A DNA stretch of 64,000 nucleotides from a bacterium. Its GTDB lineage: Bacteria; Patescibacteriota; Patescibacteriia; JBDRHN01. The position numbers and the translations under genes are program-made. A model generated the notes under the pieces. The model did not search any database and was not told the DNA's origin. It saw nothing but the letters and a program-made list of their open reading frames with translations. The DNA is taken from contig JBDRHN010000023.1 in NCBI GenBank assembly GCA_043816765.1, positions 17,353 through 81,352 on the forward strand. The letters run 5' to 3'. This document shows, piece by piece, positions 21,512 to 54,920 of this stretch (positions are counted from its first letter, which is position 1; every line of letters starts with the position of its first letter).

Positions 21512-21525
21512 AAAGTTAGTGTTTT

Positions 21526-21584: not shown

Positions 21585-21586
21585 AA

Positions 21587-31967: not shown

Positions 31968-31974
31968 AAAAATA

Positions 31975-32073: not shown

Positions 32074-32162
32074 GCTATTTAAACGCCACTCATTTTCAAT
32101 GCGATTTTTAATAATTTCTTTGTAAATTTAGGACTTTCGCATTTGAATAAAAACATCACCAT

Positions 32163-32410
32163 CTGTCATTCCAGAAAATTTTTTCCCACGGCATTTAACA
32201 ATAGTATTTTGCTCTGCTTAGAATGATATTAACAAAAACTTGGTTAAACTCACTGAAAAAATTTATCTGGAATCCAGGAGGCATTGCAATAACTCCTGGA
32301 TTCCAAATAAATTTTTTAATCTTATTGTTCTGGCTATTATTAAATAAAAAATATTATTTTATTTTAATTTGTTTTAATCAGCGCCGTGGAAAAAATTTTT
32401 TGGAATGACA
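32163..32410. mobile_element. MITE-like element (~250 bp) with 27-bp terminal inverted repeats and central palindrome
   Basis: TIR GTCATTCCAGAAAATTTTTTCCCACGGC / GCCGTGGAAAAAATTTTTTGGAATGAC; central CTGGAATCCAGGAG..CTCCTGGATTCCA; related partial copy 54760-54920. Confidence 0.6.
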
Positions 32411-32442
32411 CCTTTTTATTCGCAAACGCAAAAATCCTAAAG

Positions 32443-33444
32443 CTATAACGTCGTAATCGGCCTTGACTGCGTGATATAAAATTTACCTTTTGAAAAAGCC
32501 CATTCAATGTCTTGCGGTTTTTTGTAATGCTTTTCAATTTGACAGCAAATTTTGGACAGTTCAATTATTTGCTTGTTATTTAATTTCTGTTTTTCTTGTT
32601 TTGATTTTGAAACAGGTTGCCACACAATTCCTGAACTGGTTGAATTTTTGCGAACCAACATTTTTTCTTGCTCTGCAATATTTATATCTAAAATTTCAAA
32701 TTCTCCATCGTAGAGACGAGGCACTGCCTCGTCTCTATACTTGTTCACAATATAACTGTCCGGCGTTATCTGTCCTGAAACTATCGCCTCTCCCAGTCCG
32801 TATCCGGCTTCAATGATCATCTGATTTTTATCTTTTGTGATGGGGTGAACAGTGAAACAGACCCCTGATATTTCTGACTGGATCATTTTCTGAACCACAA
32901 CGGCAACGCCGATTTTTTGGTCAACTAAATTTTTTTCATAACGGTAAAAAATCGCTCTTGAGGTATAAAGCGATGACCAGCATTTCTTAACGTTTTTTAA
33001 AAGCGTTTTTTTTGTTGTGTTTAAATATGTTTCCAGCTCCCCGGCCCATGACGCTACTATTGAATCTTCTGCTGTGGCTGAACTGCGCACCGCCACAGAT
33101 TTTGCTTTAAGTTTTTTAAATTCCGCGTTAATTTCGTTAATTAAAACTTTCTGAATTTTGGTGTCGTTTATAATATCGCGAATAATATTAGACGCGCGGT
33201 CAATGGAATTTATGTCATCAAAATTTATTTGAGATAATTGGGCTTTTATTTCCAGCCCGACTTCCGCTGTCTCCGCGCGCGATCTCGCGCTTAAAAAATA
33301 ATCAAATGCGTCGGCTAAAATAACAAAACCATTCGGAACCGGAATTTTTACGTTAATCATTTCTCCGAGCGACGCGCCTTTCCCGCCGGCGGTTTTAATG
33401 TCTCTTGCGGAGATTTTTGAGAATGGGGAGGTGAATTTTGGCAT
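32443..33444 (-). CDS. PPDK_N-type ATP-grasp protein (PEP synthase / rifampin phosphotransferase N-domain family), stand-alone, with in-frame palindrome insertion
   Basis: GGKGASLGEM motif, RSSATAEDS, DIEWA..QSRPIT; insertion YRDEAVPRLYDGE at 32710-32738. Confidence 0.8.
   Translation of the reverse strand: MPKFTSPFSKISARDIKTAGGKGASLGEMINVKIPVPNGFVILADAFDYFLSARSRAETAEVGLEIKAQLSQINFDDINSIDRASNIIRDIINDTKIQKVLINEINAEFKKLKAKSVAVRSSATAEDSIVASWAGELETYLNTTKKTLLKNVKKCWSSLYTSRAIFYRYEKNLVDQKIGVAVVVQKMIQSEISGVCFTVHPITKDKNQMIIEAGYGLGEAIVSGQITPDSYIVNKYRDEAVPRLYDGEFEILDINIAEQEKMLVRKNSTSSGIVWQPVSKSKQEKQKLNNKQIIELSKICCQIEKHYKKPQDIEWAFSKGKFYITQSRPITTL
32710..32738. repeat. family A palindrome inside PPDK_N CDS (in frame)
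   Basis: GTAGAGACGAGGCACTGCCTCGTCTCTAT. Confidence 0.85.
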
Positions 33445-33448
33445 AGTT

Positions 33449-34687
33449 TTATTTTAAAATTTTTATTATTCCTTTATCTGCGTCAACTTCAACTACATCT
33501 CCAGTTTTAATAATTTTCGTAACATCTTTTATAGCAATAATACATGGGGTGCCGAGTTCTCTGGAAATTACCGCCGCATGCGTTGTAATGCCTCCGGTTT
33601 CAGTTAAAACAGCCGCGGCTTTTTTCATGGCTGGCACATATCTGGTTGATGTATATGCGGCAACTAAAATATCTCCTTTTTTTATTGAAGCAAGCGCGTC
33701 ATCTTTTCCGTTTGTTACAACTGCCTTTCCTTTTGTCTTGCCTGGCGATGCGGGTTGTCCTTTAAGCACTTTTTGATTCCCAACAGGAAATACTTCGGTT
33801 AGTTTCCCTTTTTCAAGAAAACGTTCCGCTTCATTTCCTTGATAAATTTGTAATTTTTTTCCTTGATAAAAAAGTATAGTCAATTTTTTGCGTTCTGAAA
33901 TAAGTTTTGTGGGGGGCGTTTTTGTTGCTATCATTTGTCTAATTTCTTTTGGTAAAAGAAATAACGTATCTTTAGTGTCTGAGAGTTTAATCCTGTTCGC
34001 AATCTGCAGAAGAAGTTTATTCCAAAAAACAGCGCGTTCTTCTGTAAATAAGGCGGATCCATCAGCTCTAATATACGCTCCGGCGCGCAATATTGTGCTT
34101 AAATTTTCCTCTTTTTTGTTTAAACGAAAAGCTCCATTTAATTTAGGCATGAGTATCTTTACATAACGAGTTTCGCGGAGCGGTTGTGTGTAGTAAATTT
34201 TATTTTGATCAACTTCTTTTGCATTATCGCTATATTCTGATAATGCCTCAAATAAATCTTCTCCAGTGAGAGAACTAAACATATAAAGCATATTACTTAC
34301 TGCGGCTATGGGAACGCTTAGTTCAAACCCCGAAAGAAATAATCTGCAAAGTTCGGCATCCGAAATATTGTCAAATTTTACAGAATTATTTTCTTTTAAA
34401 AATTTTCTTAGTTTTATTTTTTCTGCTTCATAAAAATTTAATACGTTTTTAATCCATTTGGTATCGTTTAATTTATTGCGAAAACATTTTGAAAGATGAA
34501 TAACATCATCCTCAAGCCCATATTTTTTCTGCTCCCCGTTTTTAATAATTGATAACAATCTATAACGACAACCGCACAAATTTTCAAATATTTCAAAAAA
34601 TTCTTCGCCCGCAAAAGCAACAGCCTGAAGCGGCACAATATCAACACTAAAAAATAATTCGTATTTTTTGTTTTTAAATTTGATCAT
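33449..34687 (-). CDS. PEP-utilizing-enzyme mobile (phosphohistidine swivel) domain protein with ~260-aa unknown N-terminal domain
   Basis: C-terminal ETGGITTHAAVISRELGTPCIIA swivel signature; no PEP-binding TIM barrel. Confidence 0.75.
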   Translation of the reverse strand: MIKFKNKKYELFFSVDIVPLQAVAFAGEEFFEIFENLCGCRYRLLSIIKNGEQKKYGLEDDVIHLSKCFRNKLNDTKWIKNVLNFYEAEKIKLRKFLKENNSVKFDNISDAELCRLFLSGFELSVPIAAVSNMLYMFSSLTGEDLFEALSEYSDNAKEVDQNKIYYTQPLRETRYVKILMPKLNGAFRLNKKEENLSTILRAGAYIRADGSALFTEERAVFWNKLLLQIANRIKLSDTKDTLFLLPKEIRQMIATKTPPTKLISERKKLTILFYQGKKLQIYQGNEAERFLEKGKLTEVFPVGNQKVLKGQPASPGKTKGKAVVTNGKDDALASIKKGDILVAAYTSTRYVPAMKKAAAVLTETGGITTHAAVISRELGTPCIIAIKDVTKIIKTGDVVEVDADKGIIKILK

Positions 34688-34829
34688 TTTTTTTTATATT
34701 AATTTTTTAAAAAAATATTCCGCTTAATCAAGAAACCGCTCGATCTTTTTTGAAACATATTTCGTTAATTGGACAAATTTGTCCATATACTGAAATGGTA
34801 TATTTTATTTTAAAAACATTGCCAAATTT

Positions 34830-36215
34830 TTAACTTAAAATTTTTATAATCCAAATTGGAAAAATATTTCGTTGCGCGGAAAATTCCAGTTTATCTTTTG
34901 AAATTATTGTATAAACATCGCCGGCTTTTTGCGCCTTTCGCCTGATAAATGCCATATCGCCCTCTTTAATGCTTGAAGTATGCTTCACTTCAAAATAGCG
35001 ATAACTTTTTTTGTCCATCAAATCTTTGGCGGCAATAAAGTCAAATTCTTCTTTTCTGATCCGGCAAAAAGCAATATATTGATACTGCTCCCGCAATATG
35101 TTGTAGAAATAATTTTCCACCAAGAAACCTGCTGCAGGAGAATCAACCGCCAAATAATCAAGACCGCGAAAAGCGGCATAAAAATTAACGCTTTCCAAAT
35201 AAATTTTTCTTAACAGCCTTCTGGATTTGCGGAAAGATTTAGAAAAATTATACACAAAGTGAATTAAAAAACTGTTTTCAAAATAACGCAAGTACTTATT
35301 GACTGTCTCTTTATTTAATCCTGCTTCGCTTGCCAAATTTCCAATCTCTATAATTGAGCCGATTTCACTAACCGCTATTTGAAATAAAAATTTCAATTCT
35401 TCTATTTTTTCCGCGCCATATATTTTAGGAATATCATATTCCAAAGTTTTTTTATAAACCGCTTCAATTAAATATTTTTTGCGCGTTTCTATGTCAGGCT
35501 CATTAACCAAAACCGGAAACTGGCCAAAAAATAAATAATCGTAAAAATTTTTTTTCAACTCATTCCCCCATTGATAAACTAATTTTTCAATTCCGGACTT
35601 ATCAATCTCTTGTTGCCCTGGCGCGACGGCAAATTGCTGAAAATCAGCAAGCAATTCACTTTGCGCTCCTTTGATAATTAAGTATTCTTCAAAACTTAAA
35701 ACCGGCAATTTAAATTCATAAATCCGTCCGGCTAAACTCTCCGTAGCTTGTTTTTTTATAAACAAAGACGACGATCCGCTGATTACAAACTTCAAATTAG
35801 GCTCCGTATCATAATAGCGCTTAATAATATGCTGCCACTTTAATGCGTATTGCACCTCATCAATAAAAATATACCTCTTTTTGCCGGAAACGTTTGTTTC
35901 CAAAAAAATATTAATATAATCGGTTAAACTTACTTTACTGCCTATCAAATCTTCATCAAGAGTAAGAAAAAAAATATTTTCCGGTTTTGTTTCCTTGATT
36001 ATTTTTTGAATTAGCTGTTTCAAGAGAACGGTTTTTCCGGTTCGGCGCAAACCGATAATTGAAACGATTTCCCTTTTTTCTAAATAAGGAATAATTTTAT
36101 TTAGTAACGTTCTGCTATGCTTTATGGTTTTTAGGTCGGCAAAAAATAAATCAGCATCTTTCCAGTGTTTATTCTGACGATAAATTTCCGCTAATATTAT
36201 ATCTTTTTTGTTCAT
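34830..36215 (-). CDS. AAA+ ATPase, COG1373/DUF4143 family
   Basis: Walker A GLRRTGKT, Walker B IFIDEVQ; family architecture. Confidence 0.8.
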   Translation of the reverse strand: MNKKDIILAEIYRQNKHWKDADLFFADLKTIKHSRTLLNKIIPYLEKREIVSIIGLRRTGKTVLLKQLIQKIIKETKPENIFFLTLDEDLIGSKVSLTDYINIFLETNVSGKKRYIFIDEVQYALKWQHIIKRYYDTEPNLKFVISGSSSLFIKKQATESLAGRIYEFKLPVLSFEEYLIIKGAQSELLADFQQFAVAPGQQEIDKSGIEKLVYQWGNELKKNFYDYLFFGQFPVLVNEPDIETRKKYLIEAVYKKTLEYDIPKIYGAEKIEELKFLFQIAVSEIGSIIEIGNLASEAGLNKETVNKYLRYFENSFLIHFVYNFSKSFRKSRRLLRKIYLESVNFYAAFRGLDYLAVDSPAAGFLVENYFYNILREQYQYIAFCRIRKEEFDFIAAKDLMDKKSYRYFEVKHTSSIKEGDMAFIRRKAQKAGDVYTIISKDKLEFSAQRNIFPIWIIKILS

Positions 36216-36269
36216 ATTACATTTATGAGGGTTATAACAGCTATAATTGTATCATTTATGCTTGTGTTG

Positions 36270-37334
36270 TCAAGCTAATTTTACGATCCTCACAATCCCC
36301 TTTTCCACGTCAACTTCCACTTTGTCGCCGTCTTTTAAAACTTTCGTAGCGATTTTTGTTCCGATGATGCAGGGGATTTTCAGTTCGCGGGCAATTATTG
36401 CGGCGTGGCAAGTTATTCCGCCGTCGTCAGTTATGATGGCGGCGGCTTTTTTCATGCCAACAAGGTGTTCGGGGCGAGTCATTGGCGCGACTAAAATATC
36501 TCCTTTTTCCACCTTGCCGATATTTTGAGCTGTCATAATAATTTTAACTTTTCCTGTGGCTTTGCCTATGGATACCGCAATTCCGCTTATTTCATTTACG
36601 TCTCCAAAATCCAGCCTGTTGACTATATTTAAAAAATTCTTAGCCTCTTGTCCTGCGTAAATATTCGTTATCTTTCCATTTCTATAAATAAACAAGCTCG
36701 CTTTTCTTCTATTTTTTAATTCAGAAACATTAAATTTTTTCGCTAAAATATTTTTGAATTCCCCAGAACAAGAATATCGCAACAGTTCATGATCTATTCC
36801 TGTCCTTCTGCTAATTTCTTTTAAAATTTTATCAGCCAAAGCAATAAAAGCTAAAGTATACACTTTTCTTTGATCCTGCCATTTGATAAATATTTCAGTA
36901 AGCCTTGAAATCGCTTTAATTTCCGGAGTAAATTTGTATTTTCCAAACAATTTTTCTTTTTCCCGTTTATGTTTTTCTAAAATTTTATTTTGCTTATGTT
37001 TAAATATTCTTTTTATTTCGTCTTCCATTTCTTTAAAGCTATATTCTTTGTGCCCGACATAACTTGATTTTATCCATGAATATTTTATCAAATGCGATTC
37101 CGCCAAAATAGCCAAATCTTTTTTCTTGCTAAGAAATTTTTTTAAACTCCCATTCTTGAATCCCGATTTTTTTATTTTAACCGCGATTTTTCTTAAATCA
37201 TCATCCTCTTGGTTTATAAATGACGGATCAATCGGCGCGCTTAAAACGGAAAATATTTTGTGATAATTTTTTATTTTATTTTCTTCGCAATATTTCTTGG
37301 TCAAAAAATCAAATCTTTTATCAGCGTAAAACAT
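36270..37334 (-). CDS. paralogous swivel (phosphohistidine) domain protein with unknown N-terminal domain
   Basis: DDGGITCHAAIIARELKIPCIIG; C-terminal ~150 aa collinear with 33449..34687. Confidence 0.75.
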   Translation of the reverse strand: MFYADKRFDFLTKKYCEENKIKNYHKIFSVLSAPIDPSFINQEDDDLRKIAVKIKKSGFKNGSLKKFLSKKKDLAILAESHLIKYSWIKSSYVGHKEYSFKEMEDEIKRIFKHKQNKILEKHKREKEKLFGKYKFTPEIKAISRLTEIFIKWQDQRKVYTLAFIALADKILKEISRRTGIDHELLRYSCSGEFKNILAKKFNVSELKNRRKASLFIYRNGKITNIYAGQEAKNFLNIVNRLDFGDVNEISGIAVSIGKATGKVKIIMTAQNIGKVEKGDILVAPMTRPEHLVGMKKAAAIITDDGGITCHAAIIARELKIPCIIGTKIATKVLKDGDKVEVDVEKGIVRIVKLA

Positions 37335-37370
37335 GTAGCCATCAATTGTCGTTATTTTGATAAAAAAAAA

Positions 37371-37398
37371 TAGAAAAAATTTGACACGATGAATTAAA
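37371..37398 (+). promoter_or_regulatory. consensus sigma70-type promoter (TTGACA-N16-TATATT)
   Basis: TTGACAcgatgaattaaattgcTATATTaaaaat, nearly identical to the promoter at 31939. Confidence 0.6.
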
Positions 37399-37404
37399 TT
37401 GCTA

Positions 37405-37522
37405 TATTAAAAATGAACGGCAAGCCCTATATGTGTCGTTTGGGCGCTCCCCTCTGTGAGGCTATGAGCTCAAACATCACAAACCCATAAGGCTCGTTCC
37501 CCCGAAGGGGGTTTTTATTTTT
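37405..37522 (+). ncRNA. candidate small RNA (~118 nt) ending at intrinsic terminator
   Basis: transcript between two minus-strand genes; terminator TCCCCCGAAGGGGGT + T-run at 37499-37524. Confidence 0.4.
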
Positions 37523-37571
37523 CTATAAATACTGCTTATCATAAACAATCTTGTCCTGAAAGATATTCACC

Positions 37572-38783
37572 CTATTCCAAAAATCCAAACAAATACAAAG
37601 GCATCTGTTTGCCGCCGGAAATTAAAATATCGTCTTTAACTAAATAAGAATTTTTGACCTCTTTTATTTGCTTACCCTTTTTGCCGGCTCCGCCGATCTC
37701 TAATGTATATCCATCGCAGATAATATCACCTTGCTTAGAAAAAAATACATTATATCCGGCATTCATCAGATGGCTTACGACAAACAACTCCCTGGTTTGT
37801 CCAAGATCAATCGGTTTGCCGATTGAATTATTGATTGCGCAAAACAAGTTCGTATTATTCAGATAAACTTTTTCTGTATTTCTAATCAAGGCATGTCCTT
37901 GTTTGTTTATTAACAAAAAACGCAATAGTCCGCTTTCTCTCAACATTTCAATATAGTCAGCAATGGTTGTGTGGTCTTTGCCTAAACTTTTAGACAAATT
38001 ATTGACATTTAAACTTCCCGGCTTGCTGGTGGCGAAAAAATAAATAATTTTCCTAAAAACGTCCAGATTATTTGTTTTCAATGAATAAAAAGAGCTGATA
38101 TCCTCAAAAACTGTTTTATTTATAATGCCAAGCAAGGCGTCTTTATAGTCATCATAATTTTCTAACTCCATAAAAATAGGATAATAACCCTGCTTATAAT
38201 ACTCTTTTAAATAACCGATTAATTTTGAAATGTCTGATAATTCTTTTGATATTTTAGAGCCGTCATTGATAATATTTTTTAAAGTAAAAACAGGAAATTC
38301 TTTTTTTAGTTTAACCTCAAGAAATTCCCGGAAAGAAAAGCCGCTCATATATTTTAAATTTGCCCTGCGAGATAAATCATATCTGCCCTTGACAAGATCA
38401 AGACTGGAACTGCCCGAAAAAATAATTTTCATTTTCGGATAAGAATCATAAATATTTTTTAGTTCTTGATTCCAATTTTTATAACGATGAATTTCATCAA
38501 TGCAAATAATTTCGCCGTTATATTCTTTGTGAAATCTGTCGGCTAAATCAATCAAACTATTTTCGGAAAAATAAAGATTGTCGGCAGACACATAAATACC
38601 TTTATCTGTTTTTTGGTATTTCTGTTTAAGGTAATTAAGCAAAAAAATGGTTTTGCCAACGCCTCGCGCGCCAACAACGCCGGTAATTCTGTTGGTTAAT
38701 TTAAAATCAGAAAAAAATTTTCTTTGATAAATAGAATCTATTGATTTTAATAATCTATGATAAGTTTCAATTAAGCTTTGCAT
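37572..38783 (-). CDS. AAA+ ATPase, COG1373/DUF4143 family (second paralog)
   Basis: Walker A GARGVGKT, Walker B ICIDEIH. Confidence 0.8.
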   Translation of the reverse strand: MQSLIETYHRLLKSIDSIYQRKFFSDFKLTNRITGVVGARGVGKTIFLLNYLKQKYQKTDKGIYVSADNLYFSENSLIDLADRFHKEYNGEIICIDEIHRYKNWNQELKNIYDSYPKMKIIFSGSSSLDLVKGRYDLSRRANLKYMSGFSFREFLEVKLKKEFPVFTLKNIINDGSKISKELSDISKLIGYLKEYYKQGYYPIFMELENYDDYKDALLGIINKTVFEDISSFYSLKTNNLDVFRKIIYFFATSKPGSLNVNNLSKSLGKDHTTIADYIEMLRESGLLRFLLINKQGHALIRNTEKVYLNNTNLFCAINNSIGKPIDLGQTRELFVVSHLMNAGYNVFFSKQGDIICDGYTLEIGGAGKKGKQIKEVKNSYLVKDDILISGGKQMPLYLFGFLE

Positions 38784-38902
38784 ATAATTTAGCTAAATAA
38801 TTAGTTTGGATATACTCAAATAATTATATAGTATTTTTTGGGTGCAGTCAAATTTTTAAAAAAAATAGCGGCTTGTCTGCCGCTATGTTGAGAAAAAAAA
38901 TT

Positions 38903-38944
38903 TTCGGGTAGGTTCGGCGACGTCGCCGAACCTACCCGAAAATT
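38903..38944 (-). terminator. 42-bp perfect GC-rich palindrome acting as efp terminator
   Basis: TTTTCGGGTAGGTTCGGCGACGTCGCCGAACCTACCCGAAAA; core shared with 10109-10130; T-run follows on minus strand. Confidence 0.6.
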
Positions 38945-38950
38945 TTTTTC

Positions 38951-39511
38951 TTAAACTCTCTCCACATACTCCCCCGTCTCCGTATTCACTCTGACCATCT
39001 CATCCTGCTCCACAAAAATCGGAACATTGATAATCGCTCCGGTTTCCAGTTTTGCTTTTTTTGTTACCGAGCCTTGCGCCGTATCGCCTCGCGTCGCCGG
39101 TTCGGTTTCGGTTATTTTGAGTTCAACTTTTGTCGGTAATATAATGCTGATTGGCCTGCTTTCATACAATAAAACACTCACCTCTTCACCTTCTTTCAAA
39201 AAATTAATCTGTTCTTCAACAACATCAAGCGGCAAAGCAATTTGTTCGTAGCTTTTGCTGTCCATAAAACAAACCTCATTACCATCAGAATACAAAAAAC
39301 TCGCTTTTGATCTTTCCATGTCAGCCCCTTCAACCTTATCAGAGGCGTTGAAAGTTTTTTCTATAGTAGAACCCGTGATAAGATTTTTCAGCTTAGTTCG
39401 CACGCAGGCCTTGCTGCGGGCGGATTTTGAGTGTTGCGATTCAACAACGACATGGGGTTCGTTGTTGATTTTTATCACTGTTCCTATCCTTTTGAGATCA
39501 TTCATTTCCAT
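38951..39511 (-). CDS. efp: elongation factor P
   Basis: 186 aa, KPGKGxA-region and three OB-like segments typical of EF-P. Confidence 0.9.
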   Translation of the reverse strand: MEMNDLKRIGTVIKINNEPHVVVESQHSKSARSKACVRTKLKNLITGSTIEKTFNASDKVEGADMERSKASFLYSDGNEVCFMDSKSYEQIALPLDVVEEQINFLKEGEEVSVLLYESRPISIILPTKVELKITETEPATRGDTAQGSVTKKAKLETGAIINVPIFVEQDEMVRVNTETGEYVERV

Positions 39512-39629
39512 ACTTTTCTAAAGATACAAAGATACAAGATACAATAACCAAAAAATAATCAAACGTTCAGAATTTTTTTTACATCTTATATTCTTGTGTT
39601 TTTTATTTTAAAATTATTATTACTGACAT

Positions 39630-39690
39630 CAAACGAGGCAATGCCTCATCTCTACAATCTTGGCGTATCGCAATACGCCTCTACAATAAC
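39630..39690. repeat. family A variant palindrome plus GGCGTATCGCAATACGCC hairpin, upstream of efp
   Basis: CAAACGAGGCAATGCCTCATCTCTACA. Confidence 0.7.
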
Positions 39691-39750
39691 GACTTTCGAC
39701 TTTATAGACTTTACAGACTTTCGACTTATTGGACTTTATGGACTTTCAAC

Positions 39751-39990
39751 TTACTTCGTTGTTATCGGCAAAAGCGCCATGACGCGAGCGCGTTTTATGG
39801 CAGTTTTCAGTTTTCTTTGATGTTTAGCGCATACATTGCTCCTTCTCGGGGGAACAATTTTAGCGTAAGAAGAGATAAATCTTCGCAAAATTGTTGTGTC
39901 TTTGTAATCAATTTCATCAATTTGATTAACGCAAAAATAACAATATCTTTTTTTATCCAACGTATTATTTGTTTTATTGTTTTTATTCAT
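39751..39990 (-). CDS. rpsR: 30S ribosomal protein S18
   Basis: CYFCVNQIDEIDYKDTTILRRFIS... S18 signature. Confidence 0.93.
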   Translation of the reverse strand: MNKNNKTNNTLDKKRYCYFCVNQIDEIDYKDTTILRRFISSYAKIVPPRRSNVCAKHQRKLKTAIKRARVMALLPITTK

Positions 39991-40040
39991 AATAAGACAA
40001 CAAAATTTTTAATTTAAAAAATTAAAACATTAAAAATTGT

Positions 40041-40514: not shown

Positions 40515-40535
40515 AGATTTTATTTATTTTTTTAA

Positions 40536-41138: not shown

Positions 41139-41314
41139 AGTATTAATTTCCCGCTCGCGCGAATTGCCAAAAGGCTAAAGTTATTTAAAATTTCTCGCCA
41201 GACGGAGAGGTTCTTTTAAAAATAGTTTAACAGAAAGGATATTTTTGTCAATAGACAAATTTTTTTGCATATTTTAAACAAAAAAGATACAATAATTGAA
41301 CTTTAGAATAAATT

Positions 41315-42925: not shown

Positions 42926-42926
42926 A

Positions 42927-43385
42927 TCAGGTGGTAATATAAATTAAACAAATAATAATAACCAATTGCAACAATAAGCCCTGCTTGACTGTCATTTTTG
43001 AGGGTATATAATTATGAATATAGCCATGAAAACTGCTAAAAGGCTTTAAAAATTTGGGTTTAAAAATTTGATAATATATATTTAAAACATCTGGTAAAAT
43101 ACTGCCGAGAACAGCCCAAAAAATATGAGCTGATTTTGGAATTATTGTATATGTAAAAATATAAAGAAGATAAAAAATAGTAATGAAAGCGTCAAGAATG
43201 TTTAGACTCAAAATCAAATCTCTATTAATGCGGCGGCTAAACCAATGCATTAAATTTCCGTCTCCATGGGGGATGAAATCTAAAACAAAATGAGAAACGA
43301 CCGCTAAAAGAAAAATTCCAGTAGCTGATGTTGTTATGCTCTTGGCGATAATAACGCCGATGGCTGTGTGAACGGAGATTAACAT
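42927..43385 (-). CDS. membrane protein, YdjM/DUF457-like metal-dependent hydrolase (tentative)
   Basis: 4-5 TM helices, HFVLDFIPHGD motif. Confidence 0.45.
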   Translation of the reverse strand: MLISVHTAIGVIIAKSITTSATGIFLLAVVSHFVLDFIPHGDGNLMHWFSRRINRDLILSLNILDAFITIFYLLYIFTYTIIPKSAHIFWAVLGSILPDVLNIYYQIFKPKFLKPFSSFHGYIHNYIPSKMTVKQGLLLQLVIIICLIYITT

Positions 43386-43471
43386 AATTTAGTAATTAGT
43401 AACTAGTAATCAGTAACTAGTAAATTCCTATCCCTTATTACTGATTACTAGTTACTAATTACTAAAACATG

Positions 43472-43545
43472 TAGCAGGAGTGGGGCTTGAACCCACGACC
43501 TTGGCGTTATGAGTGCCACGCTCTAACCAGCTGAGCTATCCTGCC
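43472..43545 (-). tRNA. tRNA-Met (anticodon CAU; Ile-lysidine not excluded)
   Basis: manual cloverleaf: acceptor GGCAGGA/TCCTGCT, D-arm GCTC/GAGC, anticodon loop CTCATAA, T-arm GTGGG-TTCAAGC-CCCAC. Confidence 0.75.
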
Positions 43546-44102: not shown

Positions 44103-44121
44103 ATTAATCGCTCATACAAAC

Positions 44122-44148
44122 AACCCGCAATCAGCGGGTTGTTTTTTT
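44122..44148 (+). terminator. Rho-independent terminator
   Basis: AACCCGC-aatca-GCGGGTT + T7. Confidence 0.7.
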
Positions 44149-44203
44149 GATTTGCTATATTGTGGTATTGTTAGTAAAATAGGGTTATAATTTGTACGCG
44201 AAT

Positions 44204-44453
44204 TGTCATTCCGACCGGAGTTGAAAAAATTTAAAAACACAATGGTGCCCATTCAATATAACTACTAAATAAAAATACAAAAAAAATTTATATTACAATT
44301 TAGTTTCATAGTTCAATATTAAAAAAATATTTTCAATCAGTAGAATAGATTAGCTCAATCATCAAGGGATTCCTCCGCTCCGCAAATATTGAATAGAAAA
44401 TTTTATGTCTTCGACAAAAATTTTCTATTCAATATTTGCTCCGGTCGGAATGA
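44204..44453. mobile_element. MITE-like element with perfect 18-bp terminal inverted repeats TTGTCATTCCGACCGGAG
   Basis: TIRs at 44204-44221 and 44436-44453; internal palindrome AATATTGAATAGAAAATTTT..AAAATTTTCTATTCAATATT; solo terminus-like copy at 17205-17225. Confidence 0.6.
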
Positions 44454-44501
44454 CAGTGTTTTAAAATTTAAAATTTGTGTAATTTAAAATTTACCTAACA
44501 T

Positions 44502-46061: not shown

Positions 46062-46064
46062 TTT

Positions 46065-46093
46065 GTAGAGACGAGGCACTGCCTCGTCTCTAC
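46065..46093. repeat. family A palindrome between 7TM gene and ATP-grasp gene
   Basis: GTAGAGACGAGGCACTGCCTCGTCTCTACA. Confidence 0.85.
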
Positions 46094-46109
46094 ATTATTT
46101 TATTAATTT

Positions 46110-48458: not shown

Positions 48459-48511
48459 TTCTTTTTGTATAACAAGGTAATATAAACTAGGTATAAAAAG
48501 CTAAGATTATT

Positions 48512-49450
48512 ATGAAAAAAATAATTGCGATTTATTTTTCCGACCCTGAGCCAATGGGATATCCTTTTGGAAAATCTCAATATTTAGAAATATACAAAGA
48601 AATTATTAGCAAAATTGAAAGCCACGGAATTGATGTTTTTATTGTGCGAGGAGACAGCTATATTTCAGATGGGCGCTTTAAAAGGGCATGGCAATTTATA
48701 GACGGAAACTTAAAAGAATCTAAAGGAGAAATTCGCGCTGATCTTATTTTCAATAGAGATGATAAAAACACCATACCTCTTATCCATGATTGTAAAATCA
48801 TAAATAAGCCGGAATTTGATCAAATGTGTGTTGATAAAATAAAAACATTTGAAGCCTTTCCCGATATTTCTCCGAAAACCGCATATATACATTCTTATCA
48901 AGCATTTTTAGAACAAATTGGTGAATGGCAAATGGAACCTGAGGAAATGATTGTTTTGAAAAAAAATTTTGAAACAGAGGGGCGCGGTATTTTTATAGTT
49001 CCGGTTTCGAATGTAAAAAAAGAATTATACTCAGATTGGAATGATATAATAATTCAGGAATTTTTAGACAGCTCAATTGGCATTCCGAATATTACAAATG
49101 GTTTACATGATTTGCGCGTAACAGTAATTAATGGCAGGCCGATAAATTCATTTCTTCGTGTTCCAAAAGAAGGGAGTTATCTTGCAAATGTTTCTCAGGG
49201 CGGACAGGGCACATCAATTGATCTTGATAATGTTCCGAAGGATGTTATTGATCTTGTTTGTCGCATTGACGAAAAAGTAAAAAAATATTTCCCGGCAATT
49301 TATGCCGCGGATTTTATCAATTCACCTAAGGGATATAAACTTCTTGAGTTGAATTCTCGTCCGGGGGTACAGCATCCTGATTGGTCAAAAACTTATAAAA
49401 AATTTAATGATGCTATAATTGATATGCTTGCGGAAGCGATAAAAGAATAA
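48512..49450 (+). CDS. ATP-grasp ligase (RimK/GshB-like)
   Basis: HDLRVTVINGRPI, SQGGQGTSIDLD, YKLLELNSRPG ATP-grasp C-domain motifs. Confidence 0.7.
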   Translation: MKKIIAIYFSDPEPMGYPFGKSQYLEIYKEIISKIESHGIDVFIVRGDSYISDGRFKRAWQFIDGNLKESKGEIRADLIFNRDDKNTIPLIHDCKIINKPEFDQMCVDKIKTFEAFPDISPKTAYIHSYQAFLEQIGEWQMEPEEMIVLKKNFETEGRGIFIVPVSNVKKELYSDWNDIIIQEFLDSSIGIPNITNGLHDLRVTVINGRPINSFLRVPKEGSYLANVSQGGQGTSIDLDNVPKDVIDLVCRIDEKVKKYFPAIYAADFINSPKGYKLLELNSRPGVQHPDWSKTYKKFNDAIIDMLAEAIKE

Positions 49451-49462
49451 AATTAAAAATAT

Positions 49463-50647
49463 ATGCAACAAAAAGGAAAATTCGGACAATACGGCGGGGT
49501 GTTCTCGCCGGAAACATTGATGCCCGCTTTGGAAGAGCTTGAAGCGGCTTATTTTAATATTGTTAAAAAAGATAAAAAGTTTAATGCTGAATTAAATTAT
49601 TTATTGCAACAATACGCGGGCAGACCGACGCCGCTTTATTTTGCGGAGAATTTGTCAAAAAAATTGGGACGTAAAATTTATCTCAAACGAGAAGACTTGT
49701 TGCATGGCGGAGCGCATAAGACTAACAATGGTTTGGGGCAAGGTTTGCTTGCCAAATATATGGGAAAGAAAAGGATTATAGCGGAAACGGGGGCGGGGCA
49801 GCATGGGTTTGCCGTAGCGATGATTGGCGCGTTTTTGGGGATACAGACGGAAGTATATATGGGCGTGGAAGATATAGAAAGGCAAAGAATGAATGTTCTG
49901 CGAATGAGGATGTGCGGGGCGAAAATTAATCCGGTTGAAATTCGTCCGGGGGTTGGTTCCCTCAAAGACGCGACTAACGAGGCGATGCGCGACTGGATAA
50001 CAAATGTTCGCACTACTTATTATATAATCGGTTCAGCGGTCGGGCCTCATCCGTATCCAACTATGGTGGCGCAATTTCAGAGAGTTATCAGCAAAGAGAT
50101 AAAAAAGCAGAGCATAAAACAGATCGGTAAATTGCCTGATACTGTGATTGCTTGCGTTGGCGGAGGCAGTAACGCAATCGGCGCTTTTTATGAATTTATT
50201 AATGATAAAAAAGTAAAGTTAATAGGCGTTGAGCCTGCCGGTTTGGGTGTTAATACGACTAAAACCGGAGCGTCAATCGGCAAAGGACGAGATGGAATAT
50301 TGCACGGTTCGCTGTCTAAAGTTCTTCAAGATAAAGACGGGCAAATTAAAGAGGCGTATAGCGTTTCCGCGGGGCTTGATTATCCGGGGGTTGGTCCGCA
50401 ACATGCTCATCTCGCAAAAACAGGGCGCGCGAAATACGAGGCTGTTACCGACAAAGAGGCGTTGGACGCGTTTGAATTGTTGTCAAAGTGCGAAGGAATC
50501 ATTCCCGCGCTTGAATCGGCTCATGCTGTTGCTTATGCTGTGAAATATGCTAAAATATGTCGGAAGGATGAGGTTGTGGTGGTTAATTTGTCGGGGCGGG
50601 GAGATAAAGATATGGAACATGTGAGCTCTCTAATAGGACACAGATAA
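49463..50647 (+). CDS. trpB: tryptophan synthase beta chain
   Basis: full-length TrpB (PLP Lys region [17 protein letters not shown]). Confidence 0.96.
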
Positions 50648-50740
50648 ACACAGACTAAAGCGCAGATAAACACAGATAAAATTATAAAAAATCAGTGTTC
50701 ATCTGCGCCCGAATGGTCAGTGTTTATTTGTGTGCTATTA
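50638..50740 (+). repeat. ~100-bp CAGATAAACACAG-family repeat, copy 1 (overlaps trpB stop)
   Basis: near-identical to 51138-51240; internal imperfect palindrome GCGCAGATAAACAC...GTGTTCATCTGCGC. Confidence 0.85.
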
Positions 50741-50747
50741 TATAAAT

Positions 50748-51155
50748 ATGCAAAATTATCAACACTCAGAATTGACCAAAAAAATTATTTCCTGTTTTTA
50801 TCAAGTCTACAATACTCTCGGTTATGGGTTTTTAGAAAAGGTCTATGAAAATTCTTTAATAAAAGAGTTGAATAAAAATGGATTAAAACCAGTTCAACAA
50901 ATGCCGATTAAGGTTTATTATGAAGGTGAATTGGTTGGTGATTATTTTGCAGATATTGTTGTTGAAAATTTGGTGATATTAGAACTAAAAGCGCAGGAAC
51001 TTCTATGCCCTGAGAACGAAGCTCAGCTATTGAACTATTTAAAAGCAACGAAGTATGAGATTGGTTTATTGTTAAATTTTGGAACAAAGCCAGAGATAAG
51101 GCGAAAAATATATAGCAATAATTTAAAGAATTCAACACAGATAAACACAGACTAA
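50748..51155 (+). CDS. GxxExxY protein (predicted PD-(D/E)xK nuclease fold)
   Basis: LGYGFLEKVYENSL motif plus DIVVEN..LELK; flanked by direct repeats; start at ATG 50748. Confidence 0.75.
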   Translation: MQNYQHSELTKKIISCFYQVYNTLGYGFLEKVYENSLIKELNKNGLKPVQQMPIKVYYEGELVGDYFADIVVENLVILELKAQELLCPENEAQLLNYLKATKYEIGLLLNFGTKPEIRRKIYSNNLKNSTQINTD

Positions 51156-51240
51156 AGCGCAGATAAACACAGATAAAATTATAAAAAATCAGTGTTCATC
51201 TGCGCCCGAAGGGTCAGTGTTTATTTGTGTGCTATTTAAA
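51138..51240 (+). repeat. ~100-bp repeat, copy 2 (direct repeat of copy 1)
   Basis: approximately one mismatch over ~100 bp relative to copy 1. Confidence 0.85.
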
Positions 51241-51243
51241 GAT

Positions 51244-52041
51244 ATGTCATTGATAGATAAAAAATTCAAACCAAACCAAGGAACGCTTGCCATTGGTACT
51301 GTTCCCGGATATCCCGACATGGAAACGAGTTTTGAAATCGTTAAGGCTATTGTTTCCGGCGGGGCGGATATTTTGGAGATGTCTTCTTCTTTTTCTGATC
51401 CTATTGCTGATGGTCCGACACTGCAACAAGCGCACGCGCAAATTTTAAAACATGGCGTTACAAAAGCGCAAGTGTTTAATTTTTATAAAAAAATAAAAAA
51501 AAATTATCCTGAAATTCCAATATTTGTGATTGAGTATTCTAATATTGTTTATACCAACGGCATTGATAATTATTATAAAAAATTAAAAGAGGGCGGGGTT
51601 GATTTGCTTTTAATTCCGGATGTTCCGCTTGAGGAGCTAAAGCCCTACAGCGCGGCGGCTAAAACATACGGAATCGGCCAGTCTTATATAGCGGCGCCGA
51701 CAACGGATAATGAAAGGCTGAAAAAAATTATTCCAAATGTTAACGGTTTTATATATGTGGCAACGGTAACAGGGATTACCGGCGCGAGAAAAAATGTTGA
51801 GGATGAGACTAAAAAGCTTTTGCGAAGAATTAAAACACAGACAAAAATTCCATTGGTCGCGGGGTTTGGAATCAGTAAGCCGGAACACGTAAAAACAGCT
51901 TTGAAATCTGGCGCAGATGGGGTTGTGATCTGTTCGCAGATTATTAATATTATTAATAAAAATTTGAAAAATAAGAAGAAGATGTTGAGTGAGGTTGAGG
52001 GGTTTGTGAAGGAAATGAAAAAAGCCTGCAGTCATTACTAA
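51244..52041 (+). CDS. trpA: tryptophan synthase alpha chain
   Basis: TrpA TIM barrel; start at ATG 51244, because the ORF-track N-terminus lies in the repeat. Confidence 0.92.
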   Translation: MSLIDKKFKPNQGTLAIGTVPGYPDMETSFEIVKAIVSGGADILEMSSSFSDPIADGPTLQQAHAQILKHGVTKAQVFNFYKKIKKNYPEIPIFVIEYSNIVYTNGIDNYYKKLKEGGVDLLLIPDVPLEELKPYSAAAKTYGIGQSYIAAPTTDNERLKKIIPNVNGFIYVATVTGITGARKNVEDETKKLLRRIKTQTKIPLVAGFGISKPEHVKTALKSGADGVVICSQIINIINKNLKNKKKMLSEVEGFVKEMKKACSHY

Positions 52042-52079
52042 GATGTAAAAACGACGATGCAGGCTCTTTCTTATTTTTT
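52024..52079 (+). terminator. hairpin + T-tract downstream of trpA, convergent with small minus-strand ORF
   Basis: GCCTGCA ...TGCAGGC stem with long loop, then CTTTCTTATTTTTT. Confidence 0.4.
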
Positions 52080-52166
52080 GTCTTGAGATGTTGCAACCTC
52101 AGACAAAAAATAAAAAATCTTTATCGCCACACCTGTGGCGATAAAATATAAAAATATTTTTTCCAT
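52072..52166 (-). CDS. small hydrophobic peptide (31 aa) with consensus SD
   Basis: AAAGGAGGTGAAAGAAATG; MEKIFLYFIATGVAIKIFYFLSEVATSQDKK; putative TTGACA promoter upstream. Confidence 0.5.
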
Positions 52167-52337
52167 TTCTTTCACCTCCTTTCAATGGAAAAATATTTAA
52201 TCACAAATTAAATTATATTATGATTTTTGTCAAGAGAAAATAAAACACCTGTCATTCTGAGCGACTTTTACCGCGAACTTGAAGAAATAAAAAAATTTAA
52301 TAATTGCATAAAATTGAAAAACAATCAGAATTAAGCG

Positions 52338-52495
52338 AAGAATCCCGCGGTTGTTGCAGGAACAACGAGATTCTACTCGTCGGCTCCATAGTCCCGAACG
52401 AAGTGAGGGCTATGGAGCCGATATGCGCGCGATAGCAAAACATGCCGGCTCCATAGCCCCCGCTGGCGCGGGGGACTATGGAGCCAACGCGTATT
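52338..52495. repeat. GC-rich palindrome cluster (GGCTCCATAG..CTATGGAGCC hairpins x2 and others)
   Basis: hairpins at 52383-52420 and 52447-52485; partial copy 62137-62150. Confidence 0.8.
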
Positions 52496-52627
52496 AAATC
52501 TAAAATAAATACCAAGCAAGGTGCTGGACACCCAAGGGGGTGTTTGGTTGGCGGTTGAAAAATTTATAAAATAAATAAAGCCCCCGCAAGCTTGAAGTGA
52601 AAATAAGACATTGCGGGGGGGGGGCGG

Positions 52628-52753
52628 TCAACAGCTCAGCATGCCTACTACGCATGCTATGGCGGTTAAACCGCCCGCCATTTCGGATTGAGTCAACAAA
52701 AAAAATAAAAACCCAATCCCGACTAAAAAATAAAAAAAATAAAATCTTCCCAT
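52628..52753 (-). CDS. small hydrophobic peptide (41 aa) with consensus SD, paralog of 52072..52166
   Basis: AGAAAGGAGGTGAGAAAAATG; MGRFYFFYFLVGIGFLFFLLTQSEMAGGLTAIACVVGMLSC; 3' half overlaps GC palindromes. Confidence 0.45.
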   Translation of the reverse strand: MGRFYFFYFLVGIGFLFFLLTQSEMAGGLTAIACVVGMLSC

Positions 52754-52813
52754 TTTTCTCACCTCCTTTCTGGAAAAGACTTAAAAGATCAATATAATTT
52801 TATACATTAAATT

Positions 52814-54040
52814 ATGCCTTTTGTCAAGAAAAAAAATAAAAAATTTTTCCACGCACTTCTATTGCTCTGCGCTTTTTTAATTCTTCTGCCATCAGCAATA
52901 CTAGCCGAATACAAGACTCCCCTATCCGTATTTGTCCGCGAAGGATGCGGGCATTGCTCCCATGAAGAAGAATTTATAACCGAACTCCAAAACAAACGTT
53001 CTGATTTTGAGGTTTTTTATTATGATATCAATACCGAAACCGGCCGTGAAAAATTTTTAGAAATTACAAAGCTTGAAAATCTGCAACAAGGCACGCCGAT
53101 TGCTTTAGTCGGGAACACAATAGTTCAGGGATTTGGGACAGCTGAAACAACAGGGAAAGAGATTGAAGAATTATTAGATTTAAGTTGCGGAAAACAGACT
53201 TTAAATTTTGAAGAATATTTGTCAAAAGGAGGATCAAAAGGCGGGGTAAAGCCGATTGAAAGCGAGAACCAAGAAGAATGCGACGCCAATTCAAATAAAT
53301 TTTTGGTAGATGTTCCTTTTTACGGAGTCGTAAATTTAAAATCATTTTCACTCCCCATGATTGCCACTATTTTAGGCTTTGTTGATGGGTTCAATCCATG
53401 CGCGATGTGGGTTTTAATAACTTTCTTGCTTGTGCTGATGCAAATTGGCGACAAAAAAAGGATGTGGCAAATCGCGGGACTGTTTATTGCCGCTGAAACA
53501 ATAATGTATTTTTTGATTTTGAATCTATGGTTCACGACATGGAATTTTATCGGACTTGATCGTATTGTTACTCCCATCATAGGGATTGTGGCAATCGGCG
53601 GAGGAATTTTCTTTTTGTGGGAAGCGAAAAAAAATGATGGCACTTGCCATGTTACAAATCCGGAACAGCGGAAAAAAACTCATAATAAAATAAAAGATCT
53701 CGCGGCTCGTCCGATGACTATTGCAACAGCCATCGGCGTTATCGGTCTTGCGCTTTCGGTAAATATTATTGAATTTGCCTGTTCAATAGGAATCCCTCAG
53801 GCTTTTACTAAAATTTTAGAAATCAACCGTTTGTCTTGGGGAGCTAATCAAGGATTAATATTGCTATATACTCTCTTCTATATGATTGATGATATCATTG
53901 TTTTCGGGCTTGCGCTTTGGAGCTTTGAACATCTTCATTTAACTCAAAAATACGCAAGATGGTGCAATATCATCGGCGGGATTTTGATGATAATTTTGGG
54001 ACTTCTCTTAATATTTAATCCGGCGATGTTGAGATTTTGA
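52814..54040 (+). CDS. thioredoxin-like (CGHC) periplasmic domain fused to CcdA/DsbD-type transmembrane thiol-disulfide transporter
   Basis: signal peptide, CGHC redox motif, TM domain with NPC (GFNPCAMW) and second Cys (EFACSIG). Confidence 0.8.
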   Translation: MPFVKKKNKKFFHALLLLCAFLILLPSAILAEYKTPLSVFVREGCGHCSHEEEFITELQNKRSDFEVFYYDINTETGREKFLEITKLENLQQGTPIALVGNTIVQGFGTAETTGKEIEELLDLSCGKQTLNFEEYLSKGGSKGGVKPIESENQEECDANSNKFLVDVPFYGVVNLKSFSLPMIATILGFVDGFNPCAMWVLITFLLVLMQIGDKKRMWQIAGLFIAAETIMYFLILNLWFTTWNFIGLDRIVTPIIGIVAIGGGIFFLWEAKKNDGTCHVTNPEQRKKTHNKIKDLAARPMTIATAIGVIGLALSVNIIEFACSIGIPQAFTKILEINRLSWGANQGLILLYTLFYMIDDIIVFGLALWSFEHLHLTQKYARWCNIIGGILMIILGLLLIFNPAMLRF

Positions 54041-54045
54041 TTTGT

Positions 54046-54150
54046 TGAATAGCACACAGATGAACACTGACCCTGCGGGCGCAGATTAACACTAATTTTT
54101 TATAATTTTAAATCTGTGTTTATCTGCGCTTTAGTCTGTGTTAATCTGTG
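54046..54150 (-). repeat. ~100-bp CAGATAAACACAG-family repeat, copy 3 (inverted orientation)
   Basis: ATCTGTGTTTATCTGCGCTTTAGTCTGTGTTAATCTG is the reverse complement of copy-1 5' part. Confidence 0.8.
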
Positions 54151-54166
54151 TCCTATTTTTTTAATT

Positions 54167-54703
54167 ATGTATTTTGTAAAATTAAAAACCAAAAAAGATA
54201 CTGTTGGTTTTGCTAATCAAATAGCTAATATTTGCAACAATCAAACCCCCCAACCCCCCTTGTCAGGGGGGCTATATGTTGTTGCCCTCATTGGCGAGCT
54301 TGGGGTTGGGAAGACTTTTTTTACGAAAGCTTTGGGAAAGGCGCTTGGGGTTAAAGAAACGATTAAAAGTCCGAGTTTTAATTTGATGAAAGTTTATGAA
54401 ATACCGGGCAGACGAACCGTAGAGACGAGGCAGTGCCTCGTCTCTACACAAATCAAAACGTTAGTTCATGTTGATTGTTATCGTTTGAATAGTGCTGAGG
54501 AGTTAATTGATATTGGGCTTTTGGATTATTTTGGATATAATAATACTCTTATTGTTATTGAGTGGGCTGATAAAATAAAAAAAATCTTGCCGAAAGATGC
54601 AGTTTGGGTAAAATTTAAAATGGGAAAAGATGGGGTGAGAATGGCGGCGGTGAATTTAAAACCAATGTCATTCCAAAAAATTTTTTCCATCAATATTAGT
54701 TAA
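54167..54703 (+). CDS. tsaE: tRNA t6A biosynthesis ATPase TsaE with two in-frame palindromic insertions
   Basis: Walker A GELGVGKT; SPSFNLMKVYE...LVHVDCYRL TsaE signature interrupted by RRTVETRQCLVST (54419-54448); QTPQPPLSGG insertion at 54243-54272; start at ATG 54167. Confidence 0.78.
   Translation: MYFVKLKTKKDTVGFANQIANICNNQTPQPPLSGGLYVVALIGELGVGKTFFTKALGKALGVKETIKSPSFNLMKVYEIPGRRTVETRQCLVSTQIKTLVHVDCYRLNSAEELIDIGLLDYFGYNNTLIVIEWADKIKKILPKDAVWVKFKMGKDGVRMAAVNLKPMSFQKIFSINIS
54419..54448. repeat. family A palindrome inside tsaE (in frame)
   Basis: GTAGAGACGAGGCAGTGCCTCGTCTCTACA. Confidence 0.85.
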
Positions 54704-54759
54704 CGTAAACCAAAATAGAATAATATTACTTTAGTAAAAATCTATATTAATGAGATTAA

Positions 54760-54920
54760 AAAATTTATTTGGAATCCAGGAGGAATTGCACAAACCCCTG
54801 GATTCCAGATAAATTTTTTCAGTGCATTAATTAATTTTTTGTTAATATTAGATTTTAATCAAAGTAAAAATGTTTGCTTAAGGGCGATGGAAAAAATTTT
54901 CTGGAATGACAGGCTTTGGT
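54760..54920. mobile_element. partial MITE-like element (central palindrome + right TIR), related to 32163-32410
   Basis: TTTGGAATCCAGGAGG..CCCTGGATTCCAGA and GCGATGGAAAAAATTTTCTGGAATGACAGG. Confidence 0.5.

Follow-up and report, generated by a model that had tools for sequence, protein, structure and literature searches.

The DNA analysed here is a single stretch of 64,000 nucleotides, referred to below as the window, from contig JBDRHN010000023.1 of a Patescibacteria metagenome-assembled genome (MAG; assembly GCA_043816765.1). It has a G+C content of about 35% and carries genes for ribosomal proteins, EF-Tu, GroES/EL, FtsH and tRNAs. Three elements of about 250 bp, the subject of this report, end in outward-facing copies of a 9-base tip, TGTCATTCC. 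The tip is present in eight exact copies in the window compared with 0.40 expected, and none of 100 shuffled sequences reached that number. Six of the eight copies are the tips of elements 1, 2 and 3. All eight read Y/A-TGTC-ATTCC, with the GTC flank directly 5' of the palindrome. No further copies were found in the window. A preliminary description of this DNA had recognised short, non-coding elements with terminal inverted repeats that belong to more than one family, and our analysis bears out both that description and the reality of the repeats. It had also taken them for relatives of miniature inverted-repeat transposable elements (MITEs). We argue below that they are probably built from a hairpin repeat of the kind targeted by Ssn nucleases.

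Elements 1 and 3 form family A. Element 1 (32164-32410, plus strand, 247 bp; tips 32164-32172 and 32402-32410) is a tail-to-tail doublet of two hairpin units with giant loops. Its left unit, TGTC-ATTCCAGA...(90 nt)...TCTGGAAT-CCAGG, occupies 32164-32278 on the plus strand, and its right unit, of the same type, lies on the minus strand at 32295-32410; both were delimited by a composite-pattern match and by folding. Folded alone, the left unit forms the basal stem ATTCCAGA/TCTGGAAT with a 1-nt bulge. A 12-nt spacer, GCATTGCAATAA (32281-32292), separates the two unit tails and lies between perfect cores at 32268-32280 and 32293-32305. The central palindrome reported earlier with 14-bp arms is indeed present, but its arms measure 25 nt around this 13-nt perfect core. 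Element 3 had been listed as a partial copy at 54760-54920; it is in fact a full-length copy of 246 bp (54666-54911, minus strand), inverted relative to element 1 and identical to it at 201 of 247 positions (81%). Its units, both matching the composite pattern, lie at 54666-54780 (plus) and 54797-54911 (minus). The ends and the central 62 nt of the two copies are nearly identical, while the stretches in between have diverged. The 61-aa open reading frame (ORF) in element 1 was earlier dismissed as spurious, and we agree, because element 3 has nothing equivalent: its longest ORF in the corresponding stretch is 21 aa.

Element 2, of family B, is a 252-bp element on the plus strand (44204-44455) with perfect 17-bp terminal inverted repeats, TGTCATTCCGACCGGAG, at 44204-44220 and 44439-44455. 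The perfection of these repeats had been noted before, but their length had been put at 18 bp, although the flanking bases are T and C, and the element had been ended at 44453. One end is a complete unit on the minus strand (44364-44455), TGTC-ATTCC-GACCGGAGC[56-nt hairpin]GGAGCGGA-GGAAT-CCC, which in letters reads TGTC-ATTCC-GAC CGGAGC [56-nt hairpin] GGAGC GGA-GGAAT-CCC and folds at -28.2 kcal/mol (z -8.5). The palindrome nested in its loop (44382-44439; 59 nt) is 91.5% self-complementary. As single-stranded DNA (ssDNA), elements 1, 2 and 3 have folding energies of -53.3, -53.8 and -49.6 kcal/mol and z scores of -10.3, -10.6 and -8.6, respectively. No Rfam family matches any of the three or the region at 17.2-17.6 kb, where the two remaining tips are found.

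The first of these is a solo family-B tip without a partner tail, TTGTCATTCCGACCGAAAC (17207-17225, plus strand), recognised by sequence comparison as part of a 32-nt fragment with 84% identity to the element-2 end. It was already known as a solo terminus. The eighth tip had been overlooked. It belongs to a mini-hairpin, TGTCATTCC-tatt-GGAATGcCA (17587-17608, plus strand), about 28 nt upstream of the ftsH start codon. An outer stem (TAGAGCTTTCGCGTTT/TAGGATTTTCGCGTTT, inverted; 17560-17624; fold -13.6 kcal/mol, z -4.3) with arms at 17560-17575 and 17609-17624 surrounds the mini-hairpin. The same outer motif, TAGGACTTTCGCATTT (also written TAGGAYTTYCGCRTTT), brackets element 1, where an arm at 32129-32144 on the plus strand pairs with an inverted copy found by motif search at 32424-32439 on the minus strand. 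The motif has six matches in the window compared with 0.61 expected. Two more solo copies of the outer-stem motif, TAGGACTTCCGC(G/A)TTT, are seen at 5743-5758 and 24308-24323, each inside a 48-nt repeat whose two copies are 83% identical. A large GC-rich inverted repeat (GGAGCAACAGTAACTGCTCACTGACCCCCCCC ... GGGGGGTCGGTGGGCAGTTACGAGCAAC; 17341-17495) with no ORF and no credible Rfam match lies upstream of ftsH, in the interval from the solo tip to the mini-hairpin.

The Neisseria Transformation Sequence (NTS) is CGTCATTCCCGCGMAVGCGGGAATCYRG; it opens CGTCATTCC..., contains the dRS3 repeat, and in generalised form is known as the Ssn-related motif (SRM) (PMC11893778). Both forms are bound and cut solely as ssDNA, and on one strand only, by SsnA, a single-domain GIY-YIG nuclease of 94 aa that cuts a few nucleotides 5' of the motif. 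The three bases 5' of the palindrome are important for cleavage, and the C on its 3' side is critical for binding (PMC11893778). NTS halves annealed in trans are still cut (PMC11893778), which makes the loop dispensable and, in principle, a giant one tolerable. The ssn genes, which encode small single-domain GIY-YIG proteins (cd10448), are typically flanked by repeats, an arrangement that the authors of that study likened to an insertion sequence (IS) (PMC11893778).

The flanks of this motif recur in the window units. Each half of elements 1 and 3 reads GTC-ATTCCARA ... TYTGGAAT-CCAGG, an 8-bp basal stem with about 90 nt between its arms, and the flanks of the family-A units equal those of the Neisseria NTS, CGTC-ATTCC...GGGAAT-CYRG. 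The pattern GTCATTCCARA-N(80-100)-TYTGGAATCCAGG has four matches in the window, the family-A half-units, and none in 100 shuffles. The C on the 3' side is in place: the ending is GGAAT-CCAG in all four family-A units and GGAAT-CCCT in the element-2 unit. This tail is absent at the solo tip at 17207 and at the left tip of element 2, and the mini-hairpin ends GGAATG-C. GGAATCC occurs seven times in the window, and five of these copies are unit tails. The element-2 unit is of the TGTCATTCCGAC...GGAGGAATC type known from other phyla, and its loop contains a nested palindrome.

The tips are widespread among bacteria. A scan of one genome per bacterial species for TGTCATTCCRR-N(210-240)-YYGGAATGACA identified at least 120 loci, compared with about 17 expected by chance by our own estimate (596 Gb x 31 spacings / (4^18 x 16)). 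Their sources include Dehalococcoidia, Longimicrobium, Acidobacteriota, Verrucomicrobiota, Bacteroidota, Cloacimonadota, Planctomycetota, the Alpha-, Gamma- and Deltaproteobacteria, and Wolbachia and other Rickettsiales. In these loci the tip is the 5' flank of a short hairpin, YGTC-ATTCC...GGAAT-C, for example TGTCATTCCGAGCGAAGCGAGGAATC or TGTCATTCCGGCGAAGGCCGGAATCCAG. Of the 682 tips in the tip-pair loci, 84% follow a C or T. GGAAT lies within 60 nt of 72% of them, and its next base is C in about 89% of cases. A metagenome scan with the family-A central palindrome alone returned four GC-rich contigs (L124-L127), each with a compact doublet of about 100 bp, GTCATTCCAGA-[short GC hairpin]-TCTGGAATCCAGGGGC-N16-GCCCCTGGATTCCAGA-[hairpin]-TCTGGAATGAC. 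These doublets carry GTCATTCC tips at the predicted place, though the tips were outside the query. The compact unit, as on L125, and the window units, which are 92-115 nt long with large loops, form the same stem: 8 bp at the base, a 1-nt bulge at the same position and an upper stem. The exact 23-nt family-A end has no match in the metagenome collection, and a scan of viral sequences with a shorter family-A end gave two tips, which are isolated and partnerless and were thus taken as chance. As a literal sequence, the tip was found in the literature only in primer lists.

Genes are also associated with the tips. In 886 kb of tip-rich loci there are eight ORFs of 88-110 aa with a GIY-YIG motif, all of them between or right beside tips; the three that were scanned against Pfam match PF01541 with E values from 6e-13 to 8e-18. 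One locus (L022) has a cassette of about 446 bp in the order tip-hairpin-gene-hairpin-tip, and another (L095) has a GIY-YIG gene with a tail-to-tail doublet of about 100 bp on either side. Two tip-flanked elements of about 250 bp from other phyla (L039:565-821 and L091:1562-1813) retain only the first ~19 and the last ~14-27 GIY-YIG codons, and in the L039 element the N- and C-terminal remnants are joined in frame. The forms thus run from cassettes of about 450 bp, through elements of about 250 bp with an internally deleted gene, to doublets of about 100 bp. Full cassettes, internally deleted cassettes and gene-less doublets are a series comparable to IS and their MITEs, with a nuclease as the gene. 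Judging by their size, domain and flanking repeats, the GIY-YIG proteins are putative Ssn homologues. An Ignavibacteria locus has two small GIY-YIG genes (L086:3560-3848 and 5899-6187) that closely resemble each other, are separated by 2.3 kb and both lie among tips, which indicates that the cassette is multi-copy within one genome.

We consider it probable, although with considerable room for doubt, that the elements are an AT-rich, giant-loop variant of Ssn-type hairpin-repeat doublets and belong to the NTS/dRS3/SRM superfamily. On this reading the 9-base tip is common to the three elements because each consists of inverted copies of a hairpin motif that small ssDNA nucleases (Ssn) target in Neisseria and many other bacteria. 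The repeat unit would consist of Y-GTC, an ATTCC-stem ... stem-GGAAT and C-C-A-G. Family A would be two such units placed tail to tail around the 12-nt spacer, as in the compact doublets elsewhere, with about 90 nt of AT-rich sequence filling each unit above the conserved 8-bp basal stem. Family B would be one complete unit, its loop holding the nested 56-nt hairpin, together with an inverted solo tip. In other bacteria the doublets would flank a putative ssn gene of about 95 codons or hold it in their spacer, and gene-less doublets would be MITE-like derivatives of the ssn cassette. By analogy with the published enzyme, the unit stem may form whenever the DNA becomes single-stranded, as in replication, repair or DNA uptake, and an Ssn-type nuclease may then bind the stem and the 3' C and nick a few nucleotides 5' of GTC. 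Copies would spread without target-site duplication and would favour hairpin-prone intergenic spots beside gene ends.

A bolder version of this interpretation is possible, and we put it forward as a speculation that may well be wrong. The tip-hairpin-ssn-hairpin-tip cassettes could be a class of transposase-free mobile element driven by a ~95-aa GIY-YIG ssDNA nuclease and host repair, and the gene-less form could have expanded recently in the Patescibacteria lineage of the window, its units growing as palindromes are nested into their loops. The same tips bound the full, gene-deleted and gene-less forms, as expected if the cassette is an autonomous mobile element without a transposase. Patescibacteria are thought to depend on DNA uptake, and the system could therefore also control which of the incoming single strands are recombined, the role that SsnA has in Neisseria. 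The Ssn interpretation replaces a wrong but plausible label, that of a transposase-dependent MITE, with a specific and testable one, and it links a Patescibacteria genome to a repeat-nuclease system that has so far been characterised only in Neisseria and Wolbachia.

Several observations weigh against it. To our knowledge, nobody has demonstrated that Ssn moves such repeats. Neither a pattern search nor tblastn found a GIY-YIG or ssn gene in the 64-kb window, and tblastn found no ssn remnants inside elements 1-3 or at 17208-17608. The tip-pair loci and the best 120 of 8000 GIY-YIG homologue hits included no Patescibacteria genome that combined tips with ssn; the homologue hits came from a search with one GIY-YIG protein, and none of the best 120 was named as Patescibacteria. 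Searches of the GIY-YIG proteins against PDB and NCBIfam revealed no specific tie to SsnA. When elements 1-3 are folded whole, tip-to-tip pairing competes with the unit fold. The window units, at 92-115 nt, are also much longer than the 20-50 nt of the SRM (PMC11893778), and the published SRM pattern, HGTCWYN(0-2)YYVSBRHN(0-5)WNVSBRGN(0-2)RNCYNB, has no match in the window. The same pattern has just 28 sites in 873 kb holding 682 tips, missing 96% of them, and does not match the compact doublets of L124-L127 either, which suggests that it is a narrow operational definition.

The reading implied by the preliminary description is that of classical MITEs, that is, elements derived by deletion from an IS and moved by cut and paste by its DDE transposase, which would bind the TGTCATTCC inverted repeats. 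The elements do have terminal inverted repeats (17-27 bp), a size of about 250 bp, no coding capacity and more than one copy, their tip is common to two families, and TG...CA ends are typical of many DDE elements. Target-site duplications, proposed earlier as a check, are absent at all three elements. Among 149 tip-flanked elements of about 250 bp elsewhere, 124 have none, and no duplication exceeds 3 nt; when the boundaries are not fixed, the longest word common to both flanks is distributed as in a control with randomly paired (shuffled) flanks. The flanks are instead often inverted repeats of each other: AATAAAAA and TTTTTATT with outer TAGGAC arms at element 1, and AACCAA and TTGGTT at element 3. 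Elsewhere, units form nested arrays. A Dehalococcoidia locus (L034:2846-3850, OZ244885) has Ssn-type units arrayed at a 75-bp period, first five forward and then nine reverse, and a Longimicrobium locus (L018:1855-3053) has four tandem tip-flanked elements of about 250 bp. The onion-like nesting of these arrays suggests repeated insertion at the dyad centre. Inverted flanks and the nested Dehalococcoidia arrays fit insertion into, or growth from, hairpin-prone sites, and they do not fit staggered DDE cutting. No transposase and no IS with these ends, the partner that the earlier description had proposed looking for, was found in the window (ORF list and partial Pfam scan), and there is no transposase between tips in the 886 kb of tip-rich loci, where long-range tip pairs are tandem unit arrays only and the genes between tips are GIY-YIG. 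The inverted repeat is moreover an oriented hairpin unit with its own tail rather than a simple end. We thus regard a DDE origin as highly improbable. The shared tip does point to a single recognising protein, but a transposase is not the best candidate. "MITE-like" fits the architecture, and the IS-to-MITE logic holds in outline, with an Ssn-type nuclease cassette, rather than a transposase IS, as the likely partner and parent. A different kind of transposition, that of repetitive extragenic palindromic (REP) elements and their hairpin-forming doublets (REPINs) by RAYT, an IS200/IS605-like HUH Y1 transposase, deserves very little credence. REPINs, described by Bertels and Rainey in 2011, are reportedly inverted doublets of imperfect hairpins without target-site duplication, intergenic and beside gene ends, and the window elements are likewise inverted hairpin doublets that form a larger hairpin, without duplication and beside gene ends. 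Their 5' tetranucleotide, however, is TGTC and not GTAG or GTGG, the gene in or beside the doublets elsewhere is GIY-YIG and not HUH, no Y1 transposase was noticed in the window (ORF list and a Pfam scan covering part of the ORFs), and the window holds a different and better candidate for a REP family, GTAGAGACGAGGC....

Two further explanations do without active transposition. The elements could be orphan relics, descended from SRM doublets in a lineage that lost the nuclease or never had it, and now inert palindromes that are occasionally duplicated or shortened by host recombination and replication slippage. The lack of ssn in 64 kb is in keeping with this, as are the divergence of the copies (81% identity between elements 1 and 3), the solo end at 17207, the hairpin at 17587 that has collapsed to bare tips, units swollen far past 20-50 nt, and the exact 23-nt family-A end that goes unmatched in the metagenome collection. 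It is nevertheless an unlikely account: the tips and tails relevant to Ssn are perfectly kept in four of four family-A units whose interiors have diverged, and five related Patescibacteria loci (107.7 kb in total, including a syntenic one with about 80% protein identity) have no tips, which points to a fairly recent, lineage-specific gain or expansion of the repeats in the window's lineage and not to old debris. Alternatively, the palindromes could act at the RNA level, transcribed as hairpins in 5' untranslated regions or at 3' ends (stabilisers, attenuators or terminators) or as small RNA genes. Their very stable folds would suit such a role, and so would their positions: element 2 lies between a promoter-like site 23 nt upstream, conserved in the related locus L122, and a start codon 46 nt on, the mini-hairpin precedes the ftsH start codon, and element 3 follows the end of tsaE. 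Yet there is no Rfam match, and the palindromic nature of the DNA lets either strand fold as well as the other. Across phyla the motif is found in all orientations and contexts, and the flanks relevant to a nuclease are fixed while the interiors drift. An RNA effect, improbable as the primary explanation, would be secondary, as it is for REP sequences, and would leave the shared tip unexplained. The Ssn-type doublet remains our preferred reading.

Whatever their origin, the repeats have local effects: one rewrites the C-terminus of TsaE and another lies in the predicted 5' leader of a seven-transmembrane (7TM) protein gene. All elements had been described as intergenic, which is not strictly true of element 3, whose first 38 nt encode the C-terminal 12 residues of the present tsaE ORF and its stop codon. 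The TsaE of the syntenic relative terminates in ...VIVN-stop; TTA stands in place of this stop in the window, and the ORF is 15 codons longer, the final 12 and the new stop being inside element 3. The 7TM protein beside element 2 is 100% identical to a MAG protein in NCBI, and its relatives at 45-80% identity, named as Patescibacteria, Kerfeldbacteria, Peregrinibacteria and Magasanikbacteria, place the host among the Patescibacteria (CPR). Upstream of its gene, a terminator and the promoter-like sequence TTGCTA-17-TAAAAT are common to the window and L122. Element 2 starts 23 nt past this promoter-like site and ends 46 nt before the ATG, and in the closest relative (80% amino-acid identity) the leader beyond the terminator/promoter-like block is unalignable. 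If the promoter, assigned by consensus match only, is real, element 2 is part of the 7TM leader.

Other repeats and small genes were observed in the window. A second palindromic family, GTAGAGACGAGGCACTGCCTCGTCTCTAC, has eight copies (14849-14880, 16806-16837, 21525-21585, 32709-32740, 39626-39657, 46064-46095 and 54418-54449) and starts with GTAG and ends with CTAC, as REP sequences do. The copies at 32709 (in an ORF for a PEP-utilising enzyme) and 54418 (in tsaE) are in frame within ORFs. The tsaE copy adds '...GRRTVETRQCLVST...', which is absent from the L122 orthologue and resembles the in-frame palindromic insertions of Rickettsia. The 8-mer of this family is absent or nearly so in the five related loci. 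Between trpB and trpA, within 50638-51236, a PD-(D/E)XK nuclease gene (50730-51155; PF13366, E 1.6e-40) lies between 102-nt direct repeats (99% identical, rich in ACACAGATAAACACAGA), with inverted copies of the repeat at 54040-54170 and 62300-62434. The trpB/trpA junction of L122 holds a different small gene (PF05635, a 23S rRNA-intervening-sequence protein), and the insert looks like a second small mobile cassette at an insertion hot spot. About 116 nt from element 1 there is an apparently complete small-RNA gene (31939-32075), with a promoter-like TTGACA-17-TATATT (31939-31967; 11 of 12 matches), a match to the DUF3800-IX RNA (Rfam RF02968; 31979-32047; 52.9 bits, E 1.4e-08) and, at its end, a terminator-like hairpin and T run (32051-32075). 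Short tandem and palindromic repeats of the TTACTGATTACTGATTAC type occupy intergenic sites at 4303-4365, 7843-7891 and 43382-43472, the last of which directly abuts a tRNA gene (43472-43545).

Among known systems, the elements share with the NTS and SRM the YGTC before an ATTCC... stem, the GGAAT followed by C-Y-R-G (CCAG in the window), an oriented hairpin core, intergenic positions clustered near gene ends and arrangement in inverted pairs, and the published IS-like order of repeat, ssn and repeat is reproduced in the tip-rich loci of other bacteria. They differ in their AT-rich stems and loops of about 65 nt, in not matching the published degenerate pattern and in having no ssn in the window; their host, a Patescibacteria MAG, belongs to a group unmentioned in PMC11893778. 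The Neisseria intergenic mosaic elements (NIMEs) are a further parallel, as non-coding intergenic blocks of 100-250 bp bounded by an ATTCC...GGAAT-type repeat. As Parkhill et al. are said to have described them in 2000, they are RS blocks of 50-150 bp bounded by dRS3 inverted repeats, each dRS3 being a complete small border palindrome, whereas in the window about 90 nt separate the halves of a unit, and units are paired face to face. Bacterial MITEs such as the Correia elements of Neisseria have target-site duplications and ends in common with transposase-encoding IS. The window elements resemble them in size, terminal inverted repeats, lack of coding capacity, presence in several copies and position adjoining genes, but they lack such duplications and no transposase IS partner was found for them. 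With REPINs and RAYTs they have in common the inverted hairpin doublet, the missing duplication, a single small repeat-flanked gene and large lineage-specific expansions; the differences lie in the 5' TGTC in place of GTAG and in a GIY-YIG nuclease, for which we know of no strand-transfer activity, in place of an HUH Y1 transposase.

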